Program-made: the position numbers and the translations under genes
Part shown: in pieces, positions 7,433 to 14,988 of the stretch
Position numbering within the stretch: position 1 is the first letter of the stretch
Layout of the letters: every line of letters starts with the position of its first letter
Notes under the pieces: model-generated
What the model saw: only the letters and a program-made list of their open reading frames with translations
Told to the model about the DNA's origin: nothing
Database searches by the model: none
Source of the DNA: Patescibacteria group bacterium
Lineage (GTDB): Bacteria; Patescibacteriota; Patescibacteriia; DYHP01
Reading direction: 5' to 3'
NCBI GenBank assembly: GCA_034716735.1
Contig: JAYEKT010000064.1
Location: 1-33,945 of the forward strand
DNA: 33,945 nucleotides

Positions 7433-8401
7433 ATGAAAAAAGTTTATATCACCCGTCGGATTCCGGAGGCAGGAATCAAATTATTACAAAAACAAAAAGG
7501 TTTTAAAGTTGAGGTGAGTCCGCACGATAGAGTTTTGTCAAAAAAAGAAATTATTAAAAAAGCAAAAGGTTGCGATGCTCTTTTGTCTCTTTTGACAGAT
7601 AAAATTGATGGAGATATTTTAGACGGAATTGGAAAGCAATTAAAAATCGTTGCCAATTATGCTGTTGGTTTTAATAATTTAGACGTGAAGGCCGCGAAGA
7701 AAAGAAAAGTAATGATGAGTAATGCTCCAGGGCCGGAAATTTCACAGTCAGTTGCCGAACATGCTTTTGGTCTTTTGTTGTCTGTTGCAAAGCGAATTCC
7801 AGAATCAGATAAATATACCCGCGCTGGAAAATATAAAGGATGGGCGCCAATGTTATTTTTAGGTGTTGATGTTCACGACAAGGTTTTAGGTATTGTTGGC
7901 TTGGGGGCAATTGGCCGAGCTGTTGCGCACCGCGCAGTTAAGGGAATGGGAATGAAAGTTTTGTATTATGATTTAAAACGCGACAAAGCTTTTGAGAAAA
8001 AATATGGCGCAAAACACGCATCTGTAAAAGAACTTTTAAAGAAATCAGATTTTGTTACTTTACATGTCCCGCTCTTGCCATCAACCAAACATTTAATCGG
8101 CGCAAAAGAATTAAACTCAATGAAAAAGACAGCATTTTTAATAAATACTTCACGTGGTCCTGTAATAGATGAAAAAGCATTGGTAAAAGCATTGAGAGCA
8201 AAGAAGATTGCTGGCGCAGGACTAGATGTTTATGAATGGGAGCCAAAACTTGCTCCTGGTTTGGCAAAACTTCCAAATGCTGTCTTAACACCGCACACAG
8301 CATCTGCATCAATTGAAACCAGAAGCGCAATGTCAGTTACGGCAGCAAAAAATATCATTGCAGCGCTTACTGGAAAGAAGCCGCCGAATTTGATTAAATA
8401 A
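7433..8401 (+). CDS. D-isomer-specific 2-hydroxyacid dehydrogenase (glyoxylate/hydroxypyruvate reductase-like)
   Basis: 'GIVGLGAIGRAVA' NAD fold, 'NTSRGPVIDEKAL', 'LTPHTASAS' catalytic-region motifs. N-terminus 'ITRRIPEAGIKLL' is typical of GyaR-type enzymes. Confidence 0.85.
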   Translation: MKKVYITRRIPEAGIKLLQKQKGFKVEVSPHDRVLSKKEIIKKAKGCDALLSLLTDKIDGDILDGIGKQLKIVANYAVGFNNLDVKAAKKRKVMMSNAPGPEISQSVAEHAFGLLLSVAKRIPESDKYTRAGKYKGWAPMLFLGVDVHDKVLGIVGLGAIGRAVAHRAVKGMGMKVLYYDLKRDKAFEKKYGAKHASVKELLKKSDFVTLHVPLLPSTKHLIGAKELNSMKKTAFLINTSRGPVIDEKALVKALRAKKIAGAGLDVYEWEPKLAPGLAKLPNAVLTPHTASASIETRSAMSVTAAKNIIAALTGKKPPNLIK

Positions 8402-9513: not shown

Positions 9514-10146
9514 TTACCTCCCCAATTCTTTTTTCAGAAATTCCATTGCGTTTCTTGATTTGTGTACCAATGAGTGATTAGAATTTGCTGTTTCTCCGCT
9601 CACATGGAGATGCAAGAGATGGTGTATTGATACTTCAAACAAATCATTAGCATATTGCATCGTTATATCATGTTCATAGGCATGCTGAACATCCAAGACA
9701 AAACCAAGGTCAATACTTTTTACTAGTCCTTCCAGCTCATTGATATCAAAGCCACTATCTTTGTTTTTGTCCATATTCTCAATTGCCAAAGGAACACCAT
9801 TGGAAACCAGCTCCTCATAAAAATCTACAGGATAATCGCCATTTACCTTGGTAGGATGAATTAATACTGTATCCATACGATGAGAATCAACAAGTTGTCT
9901 TGCTGTTGCGACATGGTCTTTTGTTTCCAAAGTATAGACAAGTCCAGGAAGATGAAGTGAGCGGTATGATAAACCTGCAACGTCAAAGGCCTTGCCGTTT
10001 CTCAAAGAATTTATTCTTGCGCCTTCCCATGCATCTAGAATTATCTCTACGCTACTAGTTTTTACTGCCCTTAGAATTTTTTCCTGCTCATTTAACAAAT
10101 AAAGTCCACTCGCATACATCCATCTAGTCGATGGTCCGATTCGCAT
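9514..10146 (-). CDS. xylose-isomerase-like TIM-barrel protein (sugar phosphate isomerase/epimerase or AP-endonuclease-2 family)
   Basis: 'LHLPG', 'AIENM', 'LDVQHAYEH', 'HLHVSGE' pattern. Start placed at MRIGPS (10146), which is preceded by GGAGGAAAAAGAC. Confidence 0.55.
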   Translation of the reverse strand: MRIGPSTRWMYASGLYLLNEQEKILRAVKTSSVEIILDAWEGARINSLRNGKAFDVAGLSYRSLHLPGLVYTLETKDHVATARQLVDSHRMDTVLIHPTKVNGDYPVDFYEELVSNGVPLAIENMDKNKDSGFDINELEGLVKSIDLGFVLDVQHAYEHDITMQYANDLFEVSIHHLLHLHVSGETANSNHSLVHKSRNAMEFLKKELGR

Positions 10147-10222
10147 GTCTTTTTCCTCCTTTGTTTTCAAGGTACGTTTATTTCTTCTAAGCTTAATATA
10201 AAAAAAGATTTTTGTCAAAGGG

Positions 10223-10251
10223 ATTGACTCAAACTGATTTATGTGGTACTA
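10223..10251 (+). promoter_or_regulatory. sigma70-type promoter of the tRNA-Val/Ala locus
   Basis: TTGACT, 17 nt, TACTAT. It ends 12 nt before the first copy of the tRNA-Val 5' end (10264). Confidence 0.6.
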
Positions 10252-10297
10252 TAGTACAAGTTAGGGCGGTTAGCCCCTCACACGGGAGCTTATAGAT

Positions 10298-10552
10298 ATG
10301 TTTTATATTTATATACTGAAAAGCAAAAAAGATGATAGTATTTACATAGGTTATACAAATGACCTGAAAAGACGTTTTGAAGAACACAATAATCTAAAGA
10401 GTAAATCTACAAAAAACAAAGCGCCGTTTGAGCTCATTTATTATGAATCCTATAAGTCAGAATCCGATGCAAAATACAGAGAGAAAAATTTAAAAAGATT
10501 TGCGGGCGCATATACAAGCTTGAGCAGACGAATCAAAAATAGCTTGTTGTAA
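10298..10552 (+). CDS. stand-alone GIY-YIG nuclease-domain protein (84 aa), copy 1
   Basis: 'FYIYILKS...SIYIGYTNDLKRRFEEHN' GIY/YIG/R/E/N motifs. GGGAG lies 9 nt upstream of the ATG, inside the left IR. Confidence 0.85.
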   Translation: MFYIYILKSKKDDSIYIGYTNDLKRRFEEHNNLKSKSTKNKAPFELIYYESYKSESDAKYREKNLKRFAGAYTSLSRRIKNSLL

Positions 10553-10599
10553 GCTCCCGTGTGAGGGGCGGTTAGCCCCTCACACGGGAGCTTATAGAT

Positions 10600-10854
10600 A
10601 TGTTTTATATTTATATACTGAAAAGCAAAAAAGATGATAGTATTTACATAGGTTATACAAATGACCTGAAAAGACGTTTTGAAGAACACAATAATCTAAA
10701 GAGTAAATCTACAAAAAACAAAGCGCCGTTTGAGCTCATTTATTATGAATCCTATAAGTCAGAATCCGATGCAAAATACAGAGAGAAAAATTTAAAAAGA
10801 TTTGCGGGCGCATATACAAGCTTGAGCAGACGAATCAAAAATAGCTTGTTGTAA
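10600..10854 (+). CDS. stand-alone GIY-YIG nuclease-domain protein, copy 2 (identical)
   Basis: Nucleotide-identical to copy 1. Confidence 0.85.
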   Translation: MFYIYILKSKKDDSIYIGYTNDLKRRFEEHNNLKSKSTKNKAPFELIYYESYKSESDAKYREKNLKRFAGAYTSLSRRIKNSLL

Positions 10855-10867
10855 GCTCCCGTGTGAG

Positions 10868-10944
10868 GGGCGGTTAGCTCAGTTGGTTAGAGTGTCGCAT
10901 TGACATTGCGGAGGTCACAGGTTCGAATCCTGTACCGCCCACCA
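10868..10944 (+). tRNA. tRNA-Val (anticodon GAC), CCA encoded
   Basis: Hand-folded cloverleaf: acceptor GGGCGGT/ACCGCCC, D arm GCTC..GAGT, anticodon stem TCGCA/TGCGG with loop TTGACAT, T arm ACAGG-TTCGAAT-CCTGT, A73, CCA. Confidence 0.9.
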
Positions 10945-10947
10945 TAA

Positions 10948-11021
10948 GGGCCCTTAGCTCATTTTGGTAGAGCACTGCACTTGCACTGCAGAGGTGGCGA
11001 GTTCGATTCTCGCAGGGTCCA
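10948..11021 (+). tRNA. tRNA-Ala (anticodon UGC), no CCA encoded
   Basis: Acceptor GGGCCCT/AGGGTCC with the G3:U70 Ala identity pair. Anticodon loop CTTGCAC. T arm GCGAG-TTCGATT-CTCGC. A73 is followed by TAG. Confidence 0.9.
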
Positions 11022-11025
11022 TAGA

Positions 11026-11058
11026 AAAATACCTCACCTTTTGGTGGGGTATTTTTTT
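11026..11058. terminator. intrinsic terminator after tRNA-Ala (also faces the fic 3' end)
   Basis: AAAATACCTCACC-TTTT-GGTGGGGTATTTT followed by T7. Confidence 0.75.
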
Positions 11059-11108
11059 ATTGTAGAATTGCAAGAGTGGTGTCTGTAAAATATACCTTTG
11101 TATATATC

Positions 11109-12437
11109 CTAATGCAGTAATTCTTTTATTTTGTCGGTAGAATAATACAATACGTTTCTGCCTCTTTTTTTTGTATACAAAAACCCCGATCTTTTTAATT
11201 TCTTAAGATCGTTTATAGCTGTTTTTTTAGATACCTGATAAATATTCGTGTAAGTTTTTGTTGTCGTGTAAGCATCCTTTTCTTCAAAATAATATTGTAG
11301 CAATCTAATTTGTCTGTCATTCAAATTATATTTATTTTTCGATAACTTATTTATTATTCTATTTTCGCCCGCTTTAGTGGTCGCATAATCCTTAAATTCA
11401 TCTATTGCCTGTTCTATTTTTCTAATATTATAATCAATAAAATAAGTTAAGTCGTTATCATCTTGTTCGCTATAAACATAGGCCATTCCATATTGTTTAG
11501 AAGAATTTTTTATTATCTTTGAAATGGGTAAATATGCAAATGCCCAATATCCATTTCTTAAAAGATACCAATAAAATAATGCCCGTGCTATTCTTCCATT
11601 GCCGTCTGGAAACGGATGTAAATACCCTATCCAAAAATGGATCATAATAGCTTTTATAACTGGATGCAAGAAAGGTTCCCCAAATTCATCATTAGCAAAT
11701 TTTATTAAGCGATTTAATTCCTCTTTAACAAACTTAATATTTGGGGCAATGTGATAAATTATTTTATCATCAGTTACAATAATATCCTCTTCTTTGTTTC
11801 TAATCCTCCCCTCTTGGTCAGGATTCTCAAAAGTATCCTTAGTTATCATTTTATGTAATTCTATCATCATCTCCAAAGAAAGGATCTTCTCTTTATACTC
11901 CTCCTCTATTGCCTTCATTGTTTCATAATTATTTAGAATCATCTTTTCATCAGTGGTTCTAGGTTTTCTACCTTCTTGTATCATTTTTTTAGCAACTCTT
12001 CTGGTTGTATGTGCGCCCTCTAATTGAGATGATGCTATTGCCTCTTCAATAATACCCCGTGATATGAACTGCATTTTCTTTTTCTCATCTATATCGGCGC
12101 TTGGAATTTTAAGTTGGCCACCAGTATCAAAATCTATATTATGAAAAAATTCTTCTAATCCTGGCAAAGTCTTAATCCATGTAAAAATATTTCCATCTTC
12201 ATCCTTAATAATAGTTTCAGTTTTAATGTATCCTCTAATAGTTTTAACAACATGCCAAAATTGTTCTGGTGTTACGCCTTGAGGCATTTTTTTATATTGT
12301 GATTTTTCCCAAGAAATATATGGCTTAAATGTAGATTGGACAGCATCAAATAAACCCTTATTTTTAGGATTTTCTAATAACTTTGCTACTTTATCTTTAT
12401 CCTCTTGAGATAATTTAGGTTTTCTTAAAACGTACAT
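11109..12437 (-). CDS. fic: Fic-family protein (AMPylase-type) with C-terminal wHTH-like tail
   Basis: 'HPFPDGNGRIARAL' matches the Fic motif HxFx(D/E)GNGRxxR. 'SSQLEG' matches the inhibitory (S/T)xxxE(G/N) helix. Confidence 0.9.
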   Translation of the reverse strand: MYVLRKPKLSQEDKDKVAKLLENPKNKGLFDAVQSTFKPYISWEKSQYKKMPQGVTPEQFWHVVKTIRGYIKTETIIKDEDGNIFTWIKTLPGLEEFFHNIDFDTGGQLKIPSADIDEKKKMQFISRGIIEEAIASSQLEGAHTTRRVAKKMIQEGRKPRTTDEKMILNNYETMKAIEEEYKEKILSLEMMIELHKMITKDTFENPDQEGRIRNKEEDIIVTDDKIIYHIAPNIKFVKEELNRLIKFANDEFGEPFLHPVIKAIMIHFWIGYLHPFPDGNGRIARALFYWYLLRNGYWAFAYLPISKIIKNSSKQYGMAYVYSEQDDNDLTYFIDYNIRKIEQAIDEFKDYATTKAGENRIINKLSKNKYNLNDRQIRLLQYYFEEKDAYTTTKTYTNIYQVSKKTAINDLKKLKRSGFLYTKKRGRNVLYYSTDKIKELLH

Positions 12438-12469
12438 AAAATATAAATAGATTAAAATAAGTATAGCAT

Positions 12470-12552
12470 ATACCTATTATATACCTATTTTATACCTTTT
12501 GTCAAGACGGGTGTAATGTATACCTATACTACACCTATTTTACACCTTTTTG
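12470..12552. repeat. two clusters of three 11-bp-phased AYACCTWTTWT repeats
   Basis: ACCT cores at 12472, 12483, 12494 and at 12522, 12533, 12544. A related TATACCTTTG is at 11091-11100, beyond the fic 3' end. Confidence 0.8.
12476..12505 (-). promoter_or_regulatory. fic promoter
   Basis: Minus strand: TTGACA (12505-12500), 18 nt, TATAAT (12481-12476). The spacer is filled by the first repeat cluster. Confidence 0.6.
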
Positions 12553-12612
12553 CAATTCCTTATATTATCCCACAACCGCAACTCCTCCAAAAACTCGTTC
12601 CAATGAAATGTT

Positions 12613-12625
12613 GCAGGGTCCACCA
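12613..12625 (+). repeat. displaced copy of the tRNA-Ala 3' end (GCAGGGTCCA + CCA)
   Basis: GCAGGGTCCA is identical to 11012-11021. Here it is followed by CCA and a hairpin/T7 terminator (12630-12657) whose 3' half resembles that at 11043-11058. Confidence 0.5.
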
Positions 12626-12658
12626 CAAAGAACATCCTGAAAGGGGTGTTTTTTTGTA

Positions 12659-12687
12659 TTGACAAAAAGTTGTTTTTGTCTTAAGCT
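12659..12687 (+). promoter_or_regulatory. possible promoter of the orphan radical SAM gene
   Basis: TTGACA, 17 nt, TAAGCT (weak -10). Strong AAGGGGAGGAAAGC-ATG SD downstream. Confidence 0.35.
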
Positions 12688-12733
12688 TAATAAAATTAAA
12701 TGATCTTTTAAAAAACAACAAGGGGAGGAAAGC

Positions 12734-13585
12734 ATGCAGGTATGTCTATTCGTAAATTCAGAATGTAACGCGAGGTGTAAACATTGTTGTTTATCATATT
12801 CTGGCTCAAGAGATCCAGAAGATTCATTAAAGATAGTAAAACAGTTGAGAGATAACAGGCATAAAGTAATTATTGCCGGTAGCGAGATATTGTTGAATCC
12901 TGAATATCTTAAATCGTATCAGAGGGCTGGACAGAATTATCTACTAACAAATGGAATTATCTTAGACAGAGATAAGGCGACATATGATTTGTTGAGGAAA
13001 CATGGAATTGAGGAGTTGGGGCTTAGTATTCATTTCGGGATTCAGAGAGATTTAGGAAGCGTGCCCGAAGATTTGGTAGTTAGAGTGATAAAAGAAAGTA
13101 GAAGAAGGGAATTTAGAATTAAGATTACTACAACAATCACCTCGGGAAACTACAGTATCATTGAACAAATGTGTGAGAAGGCAACAGGACTTGATGCCTA
13201 CATGATTCAATTTTTTAGGTTTGTGAGTATTGGAAGAGGAAATACAAGAGGAGAATTAGCGCTATCGCCAGAACAAGTAGATGAATTTTTTGCACAGGTA
13301 GAAGAATTGAGAAAAAAATATCCCAAGTCAATTCTTGAGATAAGACCGCATGGAAATTTTGGTCCCAGACCTGGTTCAAAAGGCGAACGGCTTGCTAAAA
13401 AGAATAGATATTGTCCGGCGGGAAAGGATTTGGTTGTGATTGATTCGCAAAATAGAGTTTATGGTTGCCCATTCTGCATGAGCCCAGAAAATGTAATTGG
13501 AAGATACGAAGACGGAAAGATTGTGATTGAAAGGGGGATATTAAAAGGAAAAAGAGATACTTGTATTGCGCATTTGCTTATTTAG
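12734..13585 (+). CDS. radical SAM protein with SPASM/twitch-like C-terminal Cys cluster
   Basis: 'CNARCKHC' CX3CX2C at residues 11-18. C-terminal 'YCPAGKD...VYGCPFC'. Confidence 0.8.
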   Translation: MQVCLFVNSECNARCKHCCLSYSGSRDPEDSLKIVKQLRDNRHKVIIAGSEILLNPEYLKSYQRAGQNYLLTNGIILDRDKATYDLLRKHGIEELGLSIHFGIQRDLGSVPEDLVVRVIKESRRREFRIKITTTITSGNYSIIEQMCEKATGLDAYMIQFFRFVSIGRGNTRGELALSPEQVDEFFAQVEELRKKYPKSILEIRPHGNFGPRPGSKGERLAKKNRYCPAGKDLVVIDSQNRVYGCPFCMSPENVIGRYEDGKIVIERGILKGKRDTCIAHLLI

Positions 13586-13857: not shown

Positions 13858-14988
13858 TTAAAGAACTAATTTTCTTACCTCATCAACTACCCACTTTTCA
13901 GATTTTATCAAATCCTTATCTGTTACGCAAAACTTAATTTCATTATTAATAATTACATAAGGTTCATTGAAATTCATTGCTAGTTTTTTCAAATCAAAAT
14001 TTCTTCCAGCGCGAAGGAGACAGCAAATAGAATCAGAATCTTCATATATAAAAAGGACGAGCTTTGCTTCTGGCGAATTTATTATCAATTCATCAATAAC
14101 ATCTGGCAAATGTTTCGCATCTGCGCCTGCTTTTATGAAATCTTGTCGAGACAAAACTGACCAGACAAGCCCAATATTATCATCGTGTTTTAGTCCTGCA
14201 AGCGCTCTTCCCCAAAGTTTTAAAATTGGAACAGTTTGTTGTTTATATAAATTATTAACTATCTTTTCTCGCTTTGCGCCCATAGAAATAAGACGCCCTG
14301 CAATATCTAATGTGCGGGGCGTTATGTTTTCTGTTTTAAAACTTTTTGTTTTTGAAATAATTCCTGTTAAAAAGTATGTAGAAATATCTTCATCAATAAT
14401 TTGTTCATTTTCATTAAAAATATTATAAATAATTTCAGAAATTGATGTCGCAGATAAGTCCACCAAATTTATTTGTCCAAAGCGTGTATTTTCTGGCTTG
14501 TGGTCTATATTAACAATTGGAGTATGATAGAAAAAGTCCAGATTTTTTTCATAAATTTTTCCTAGTGTTTCAAGATTTTCCGCGTCAAGCGTAAAAATAA
14601 TATCATAATTAAATTTTGATGAACCAAATTTGATGTTTTCGGTCTTTATACTGCCTTCTTTTAATCTGAGAGAGATATTTAACTTGTTGTTTTTATGAAA
14701 ATGATCTACAGTATCAATTTTATCTTCTGGAATCTCAATTGAAATTAAATAATTTTGTAGATTAACAAGATTTGGTGAAATTAAATTTATTTTAGGTAGA
14801 AATTCAATTGGTTTTGTAGAGGCAAAATTATGCGAAACAATAGTCGGATTTTTTTTCAAATCCATACATAGTAAATATAATCCTAAACTAGATGCTATTG
14901 CATCGTGTGATGGGTTCTCTGCAAGAACTATAAGTGGTTTTTTGCTCTCACCAAGAATTGTCTTAATTTGTGCTATTTCGTCATTCAT
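13858..14988 (-). CDS. DHH-family phosphoesterase (NrnA-like), catalytic motifs partly degenerate
   Basis: 'PSHDAIASSLGLYL' (where DGDAIGS is usual), 'NIDHKPEN' (where DHH is usual), 'LTGIISKTKSF'. No GGGH motif seen in the DHHA1 region. Confidence 0.55.
   Translation of the reverse strand: MNDEIAQIKTILGESKKPLIVLAENPSHDAIASSLGLYLLCMDLKKNPTIVSHNFASTKPIEFLPKINLISPNLVNLQNYLISIEIPEDKIDTVDHFHKNNKLNISLRLKEGSIKTENIKFGSSKFNYDIIFTLDAENLETLGKIYEKNLDFFYHTPIVNIDHKPENTRFGQINLVDLSATSISEIIYNIFNENEQIIDEDISTYFLTGIISKTKSFKTENITPRTLDIAGRLISMGAKREKIVNNLYKQQTVPILKLWGRALAGLKHDDNIGLVWSVLSRQDFIKAGADAKHLPDVIDELIINSPEAKLVLFIYEDSDSICCLLRAGRNFDLKKLAMNFNEPYVIINNEIKFCVTDKDLIKSEKWVVDEVRKLVL

Follow-up and report, generated by a model that had tools for sequence, protein, structure and literature searches.

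Islands integrated into tRNA genes by tyrosine integrases typically have identity blocks that span from the T-loop or the anticodon loop to the 3' end of the tRNA, and the integrase usually lies beside the tRNA. The cis-mobilizable elements (CIMEs) carry repeats at an integration hotspot and no integrase of their own; they stem from known families of integrative and conjugative or integrative and mobilizable elements, have att sites that are defined, and find their cognate integrase in the same host (ICEberg 2.0, PMC6323972; PMC5704250). Insertion with long target duplication is described for some restriction-modification (RM) units (Furuta et al. 2010, PMC2853133, citing Nobusato et al. 2000). 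The locus compared with these systems here is a single fic gene, encoding a SoFic-like protein, which lies behind the gene for tRNA-Ala(UGC) in contig C64 of a Patescibacteria genome; the whole contig, 33,945 nt long, was analysed and is referred to below as the window. The assembly amounts to 871 kb in 124 contigs with 35% GC, and its size and gene content are those of a Patescibacteria-type (candidate phyla radiation, CPR) organism. The comparisons below support the view that fic is a foreign single-gene cassette, placed between the functional tRNA-Ala and what appears to be a displaced copy of the 3' end of that tRNA. Our best explanation of the locus as a whole, to which we would assign a probability of about 0.6, is that a Fic cassette with no recombinase inserted at the 3' end of tRNA-Ala(UGC), and that the segment containing both was afterwards inverted.

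As in the tRNA-integrated islands, the insert begins at 11022, right after the discriminator base, a repeat of the tRNA end stands at the far side, the element would supply a replacement end and terminator, and what is carried is an accessory toxin or defence gene. The locus differs from those islands in having no integrase, in the insert being a single gene, and in a repeat that is, at 10 nt, short for the class. With the CIMEs it has in common the repeats at an integration hotspot and the lack of its own integrase, but no partner of that kind was identified for it, and related cassettes have no arms in common. What it has in common with the RM units is a selfish or defence unit without a mobility gene and with target repeats of variable length, a description that fits 12 of the 68 Fic loci examined below. 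That class is defined with repeats longer than 30 bp (PMC2853133), so that the 10-bp repeat of the window falls short of it while about 12 of the 68 homologous loci belong; moreover, the two copies at Fic loci differ at synonymous sites, which implies that one of them is foreign, whereas the RM examples tabulated in PMC2853133 are near-identical.

The last 10 nt of tRNA-Ala, GCAGGGTCCA, occur again on the same strand 1.6 kb downstream, as the sequence-only reading of this DNA had noticed, and the two copies are the only ones in the 871-kb genome when both strands (1.74 Mb) are searched. No third copy is present in the window or the rest of the genome, and 100 shuffles of the window produced none. 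Estimated from base composition (36% GC), a second copy would turn up on the same strand within 2 kb with a probability of about 4e-4, and counting in the CCA behind the distal copy cuts this estimate another 64-fold or so. It is because the match sits exactly at the tRNA end, and because CCA follows the distal copy, that so short a repeat carries weight. ARAGORN and Rfam bear out that the functional tRNA-Ala has no encoded CCA while the neighbouring tRNA-Val has one; apart from tRNAs, the Rfam search of the window returned nothing. The missing CCA is not odd by itself, since about half of the 33 tRNAs in the genome are without an encoded CCA, and a candidate CCA-adding enzyme was found. This tRNA-Ala(UGC) gene is the sole copy in the assembly.

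Folding confirmed the hairpin terminator reported behind the distal CCA and another one right after the functional tRNA. A simple consensus terminator scan had missed both, because the T-run forms part of the extended stem in each. The likeness between the two stretches that had been pointed out earlier does rise above shuffled sequences, but it is weak (p of about 0.006-0.02) and in part reflects shared terminator architecture, and we do not rely on it. Read by eye, the terminator behind the distal copy looks like the one behind tRNA-Ala in G002, which, together with G001, makes up the two same-family genomes available for comparison, both from other genera.

Four tRNA-Ala(UGC) genes were recovered from relatives (G001, G002, G044 and G057) by a search that did not select for CCA, and every one of them encodes it. 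In G002 the order is DHH gene, tRNA-Val, tRNA-Ala with CCA, and terminator; fic is missing, and the gene downstream differs from that of the window. Neither G001 nor G002 has a close fic homologue, and only 2 of 60 relatives in the class have one. Homologues at 50-58% identity are scattered over Patescibacteria, Omnitrophota, Zixibacteria, Margulisbacteria, Gammaproteobacteria and others. The closest cassettes (L038-L041, 72-73% amino-acid identity) are homologous to the window in DNA from 11119 to 12550 only, which takes in the open reading frame (ORF) plus some 113 bp with the promoter and operators. The homology thus ends inside the repeat-bounded segment, and no arms beyond promoter and ORF are held in common.

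On either side of the closest fic homologue stands an element of about 125 nt (L038, 215-365 and 1825-1965; L039, 2765-2915). A 23-codon ORF (MSFSIGTAGTQ...) opens this element, in which ATCGGGACGG is also present (alignment A1). A tRNA-Ala(GGC) gene lies 377 bp upstream of this fic homologue.

The earlier statement that the 1.6 kb between the repeats hold only fic, its promoter and its repeats was borne out, with small additions: 11022-12612 contains the first hairpin, the one fic ORF, the promoter with its repeats, and 62 bp of other sequence. The promoter matches the sigma-70 consensus at 12 of 12 positions. No recombinase is encoded between the repeats, fic being the sole gene there; a serine recombinase was looked for and not found, and no terminal inverted repeats of the transposon kind could be made out at 11022 or 12612. 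When the arms of the cassette and the distal flank were compared by BLAST with every fetched locus and with the remaining genome, only chance 12-16-mers came up. The segment has a GC content of 0.302, that of the genome being 0.354 +/- 0.034; only 4% of genome windows are equally low. The coordinates are collected in the table.

Table. Features of the fic locus and its surroundings, in window coordinates.
Feature	Position	Strand	Details
2-hydroxyacid dehydrogenase (2HAdh) gene	7433-8401		one end of the frame common with G002
Promoter and ribosome-binding site (RBS) of AP-endonuclease-2-like gene	10144..10218	-	inverted-repeat arm
tRNA-Val(GAC)	10868..10944	+	CCA encoded; ARAGORN, Rfam
tRNA-Ala(UGC)	10948..11021	+	G3:U70 pair; TAG next, CCA not encoded; ARAGORN, Rfam
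GCAGGGTCCA, proximal copy, 10 nt	11012..11021	+	final 2 T-stem nt, 3' acceptor strand, discriminator
Hairpin + T7 right after the tRNA	11022..11060	+	cassette-side end; bidirectional terminator-like; -22.5 kcal/mol, z -7.5
fic ORF, 442 aa, SoFic-like	11109..12437	-	SxxxEG motif, HPFPDGNGRIAR active site, C-terminal region like a winged helix-turn-helix (wHTH)
fic promoter and operator-like repeats	12438..12555	-	-35 TTGACA 12505-12500, -10 TATAAT 12481-12476; TATACCTATT-type repeats around (family D2)
62-bp stretch	12551..12612	not assigned	between conserved cassette and distal repeat
GCAGGGTCCA, distal copy, with CCA	12613..12625	+	10-mer 12613-12622, CCA 12623-12625; displaced tRNA-Ala 3' end (putative)
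Hairpin + T7 behind the distal copy	12625..12658	+	-13.3 kcal/mol, z -3.3
Promoter and RBS of radical SAM gene	12659..12736	+	inverted-repeat arm (I1)
Radical SAM/SPASM-like enzyme, 283 aa	12734-13585		
DHH gene	13858-14988		other end of the frame common with G002

The question of whether such repeats accompany this kind of gene elsewhere was addressed with a family set of 83 loci (80 from genomes, 2 from metagenomes, and that of the window). The 500 bp upstream of fic were aligned with the 500 bp downstream in the 68 loci that have at least 300 bp on each side, a score of at least 40 being required. Flanking direct repeats were found in 12 of the 68, while the inverted control gave 0/68 and mismatched locus pairs 0/204. 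The repeats are the ends of host genes, about 20-145 bp long, and between them lie promoter sequence of 70-270 bp, the fic ORF and a further 0-70 bp, which leaves no room for a recombinase. Most differences between the copies fall on third codon positions (L067, 4 of 4; L126, 14 of 19), and the reading frame is intact in both. The two copies thus have a history as functional genes in separate lineages, and one arrived with the cassette. An empty site for L126, one of the long-repeat loci, was sought and not found, the relatives being too divergent.

A tRNA gene lies within 700 bp of fic at 7 of the 80 genome loci. One locus, L070, is a close parallel to the window. In L070, from a Margulisbacteria single-cell genome, the order is tRNA-Glu(UUC), a hairpin, a fragment of IS3 orfA, fic on the opposite strand, and operator repeats; the last 11 nt of the tRNA (CCGTGGGGCTA) are repeated at the far side, where they abut the stop codon of a convergent LEA_2-family gene. 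The relative G062 has the uninterrupted site, in which the end of tRNA-Glu overlaps the stop codon of the LEA_2-family gene. Two other loci where the tRNA is convergent with fic, L102 and L116, show no repeat even when 2 mismatches are allowed. As a separate observation, in the comparison of L070 with L141 the tRNA-Glu/LEA_2-gene pair with its fic islet is also inverted relative to the neighbouring MTAP gene, compared with G062.

Taken by itself, the insertion of fic behind tRNA-Ala is, in our judgement, quite likely to have taken place. The proposal that the cassette displaced the native 3' end of the tRNA is supported by the encoded CCA in all four relatives, the patchy distribution of fic, the low GC content of the segment, the repeats of the Fic family, and the L070/G062 pair with its empty site. 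Several observations pull the other way, the missing repeat in L102 and L116 among them. No empty site of the window's own lineage, and no close relative, same-genus genome or same-genus contig, was found. Exact-protein look-ups for the fic and radical SAM proteins gave no match, and a metagenome scan with the tRNA-Ala 3' end plus CCA returned 12 contigs, none from a close relative and none with the sequence from 12626 onwards. The 62 bp at 12551-12612 have no homologous counterpart among the fetched loci or in the rest of the genome and are left unexplained. The DHH gene, a conserved neighbour, is as AT-rich as the fic segment. As a generic match between flanks, a 10-nt repeat (score 22) is background: the median score of the family comparison is 20-22, which corresponds to exact 10-11-nt matches between 500-bp flanks. 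Very many tRNAs were inspected overall, and some chance cases are to be expected. Lastly, RecA-type recombination needs more than 10-11 bp, and it may be that a site-specific enzyme acted in the tRNA cases.

The course of events that we propose starts with a single-gene cassette of about 1.45 kb, made up of an operator-studded promoter and a SoFic-like Fic-wHTH gene with short idiosyncratic flanks, which would have entered the 3' end of tRNA-Ala(UGC). Judging from the comparisons above, the functional tRNA would then have come to end in cassette-side sequence, with its CCA gone and a hairpin terminator of its own, while the native last 10 nt, the CCA and the native terminator were probably shifted 1.6 kb downstream. 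The site before insertion would read ...CTCGCAGGGTCCA directly joined to CCACAAAGAACATCC, and the sequence expected of an empty site would be ...CTCGCAGGGTCCACCACAAAGAACATCC.... With less certainty, the cassette may have moved on DNA that also carried a conserved gene end, here that of a tRNA; homologous recombination by the host, anchored on this end, would have brought it in, the opposite side being joined illegitimately. We take this mode of entry to be akin to homology-facilitated illegitimate recombination. The outcome would be a target duplication of arbitrary length, 10 nt in this case ('insertion with target duplication'); of the patterns described so far, the long target duplication of RM units (PMC2853133) comes closest. 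At a later time the tRNA-fic segment would have been flipped by recombination between two inverted promoter copies. Entry by anchoring on a conserved gene end with an illegitimate join is a tentative model, somewhat short of an even chance; it is preferred because the targets and the repeat lengths vary, the diverged copies are foreign and differ synonymously, and close cassettes have no arms in common.

Among the other explanations, classic site-specific integration survives best, although we regard it as unlikely. By this account the 10 nt would be an att core used by a tyrosine integrase acting in trans on a cis-mobilizable element, or the locus would be the remnant of a larger island whose integrase has been lost. 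The sequence-only reading had seen the classic attL/attR signature here, and part of it stands: a tRNA 3' end, a direct repeat and an element-supplied terminator are indeed the architecture of a tRNA-integrated island, the 10-11-bp repeats of the window and L070 suit a recombinase core better than RecA recombination, and the L070 islet has an IS3 orfA fragment inside it. An integrase origin, however, is unproven, as neither the insert nor its immediate surroundings encode an integrase. A PF00589 search of the genome gave two tyrosine recombinases, a 447-aa phage-type integrase on C92 and an Xer-like enzyme on C61, but both are on other contigs with no tRNA nearby. Closely related cassettes without common arms outside promoter and ORF also speak against this account, as do family targets and repeat lengths (10 to about 145 bp) that are too variable for one integrase family, and independent decay down to one gene at a dozen loci is unlikely.

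A second possibility, which we hold to be improbable, is that the distal tRNA-Ala fragment is a scar left at a tRNA hotspot by something earlier and unrelated, such as the nested tRNA-Ala/GIY-YIG elements described further below or the accretion of another element, and that fic merely lies between. Fragments of tRNA-Ala without fic are common in the clade: G001 has tRNA-Ala halves around a GIY-YIG ORF, and the nested arrangement is present in 6 of the 12 metagenome contigs with the same tRNA-Ala 3' end. The 62 bp beside the distal repeat are not cassette sequence, and the locus is inverted, both of which would suit a scar. The known scars, however, are 3' halves of 37-40 nt that include the T-arm, lie within about 15 nt of the intact gene and have TCCCGAT/ATCGGGA borders, none of which is seen at 12551-12625, and the Fic family itself has the flanking-repeat pattern. 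That the 10-nt match is mere chance and fic a plain neighbouring accessory gene is very improbable: matches of this length are background in the family comparison, and very many tRNAs were inspected, but the uniqueness and position of the pair, the CCA behind it, a match that stops exactly at the discriminator base, and the parallel 11-nt case with its empty site all stand against it.

To return to insertion without a recombinase, it is possible, though we would not yet call it probable, that SoFic-type genes with their operator-promoters are widespread recombinase-free mobile defence cassettes which spread between distant lineages by hitch-hiking on conserved gene ends, be they tRNA 3' ends or housekeeping termini, and which enter through host recombination at such an end. 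Just as tentatively, the target duplications left behind might then range from 10 to about 145 bp, with the window at the short-repeat extreme. Patescibacteria have tiny genomes with few recognisable mobile elements, and how defence genes arrive in them is poorly understood. The locus by itself is an ordinary example; together with the family pattern it suggests that no dedicated recombinase is needed for single toxin or defence genes to move, conserved gene ends, those of tRNAs for instance, serving as landing pads. If this were general, it would offer a simple route of horizontal gene flow and would explain the build-up of such genes around tRNAs.

The later inversion can be followed from the genes around the locus. 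Within the frame that the window and G002 have in common, delimited by 2HAdh and DHH, the tRNA pair lies on the opposite strand relative to DHH in the two genomes. Two promoter-RBS arms (TTGACA-N17-TAAGCT...ATG), which align at a score of 62 against 22 +/- 4 for shuffles, bracket 10219-12658 (2.4 kb) as inverted copies; inside lie, besides both tRNAs and fic, the GIY-YIG units and the displaced end followed by its terminator. Flipping 10219-12658 restores collinearity with G002, and the displaced end and terminator then adjoin the AP-endonuclease-like gene and not the radical SAM gene. The prediction that an empty site would run from the terminator into the radical SAM gene is doubtful for this reason, the tRNA-fic segment being inverted relative to relatives; no such site was found among them, and the prediction is probably wrong in that detail.

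The Fic protein matches the Pfam Fic family at 5e-18 and the PADLOC SoFic defence model at 3e-44, with 305 of 361 positions covered, yet it scores 45 bits against the NCBIfam SoFic equivalog, far under the cut-off of 550. The Fic motif HxFx(D/E)GNGRxxR is present as HPFPDGNGRIAR, and the inhibitory motif (S/T)xxxE(G/N) as IASSQLEGA at residues 134-142, N-terminal to the core; both are invariant in 24 homologues (alignment A2). The C-terminus, residues 376-434, resembles ArsR-like wHTH domains. The nearest solved structures are 8cil (a Fic family protein), FICD, and the Fic-HTH protein 7xux (match 5.9e-9), which is CccR of Yersinia pseudotuberculosis, whose DNA-binding domain represses its own promoter (PMC9755527). 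SoFic is described as acting in abortive infection through AMPylation (PMC12249575). With the SoFic or class II Fic AMPylases the protein has in common the PADLOC match, the HPFxDGNGRxxR and SxxxEG motifs and the single-gene organization; it differs in being about 80 aa longer at the N-terminus and in the low NCBIfam score. With CccR it has in common a Fic domain joined to a DNA-binding domain at the C-terminus, and the repeats over its consensus promoter suggest autoregulation; CccR, however, is a secreted effector of the type VI secretion system (PMC9755527), whereas secretion has no support here and operator binding is a prediction. The protein is most likely an auto-repressed AMPylating toxin or an abortive-infection defence enzyme, and its wHTH region would most likely bind the promoter repeats.

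The radical SAM gene on the other side of the distal terminator has homologues on scattered contigs only, from CPR bacteria (Peregrinibacteria, Gracilibacteria) and DPANN archaea (Woesearchaeota, Nanoarchaeota), the best identity being 68%. The homologous loci are unrelated in context, with no tRNA nearby and hence no empty site, and the gene is absent from the 60 relatives. As a viperin-type defence partner of fic the enzyme was considered and rejected, since its pVip and viperin matches are far under the cut-offs; it is a generic SPASM-type enzyme.

Upstream of the tRNA pair, 10264-10871 consists of two 302-bp units side by side, 100% identical, each with an 84-aa GIY-YIG ORF and each bounded by terminal inverted repeats of 20 nt (GCCCCTCACACGGGAGCTTA / TAAGCTCCCGTGTGAGGGGC). 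There are three copies of the 11 nt with which tRNA-Val begins (GGGCGGTTAGC). Nested tRNA-Ala genes were seen at L023 (G001, 1698-2230) and at L128, L129, L131, L133, L134 and L137. In these loci the anticodon loop of an outer tRNA-Ala(UGC) is interrupted (TTTG^CAA) by an insertion with TCCCGAT...ATCGGGA as its borders, which carries a complete inner tRNA-Ala with CCA, its acceptor stem lengthened by complementary flanking sequence, and in G001 and L128 a GIY-YIG ORF as well. Elsewhere in the genome of the window (G000), near-duplicate tRNA sets, one with tRNA-Gly(GCC) and tRNA-Phe(GAA) and the other with tRNA-Lys(UUU), stand on different contigs (C36/C124 and C80/C93), which suggests strain heterogeneity or assembly redundancy.

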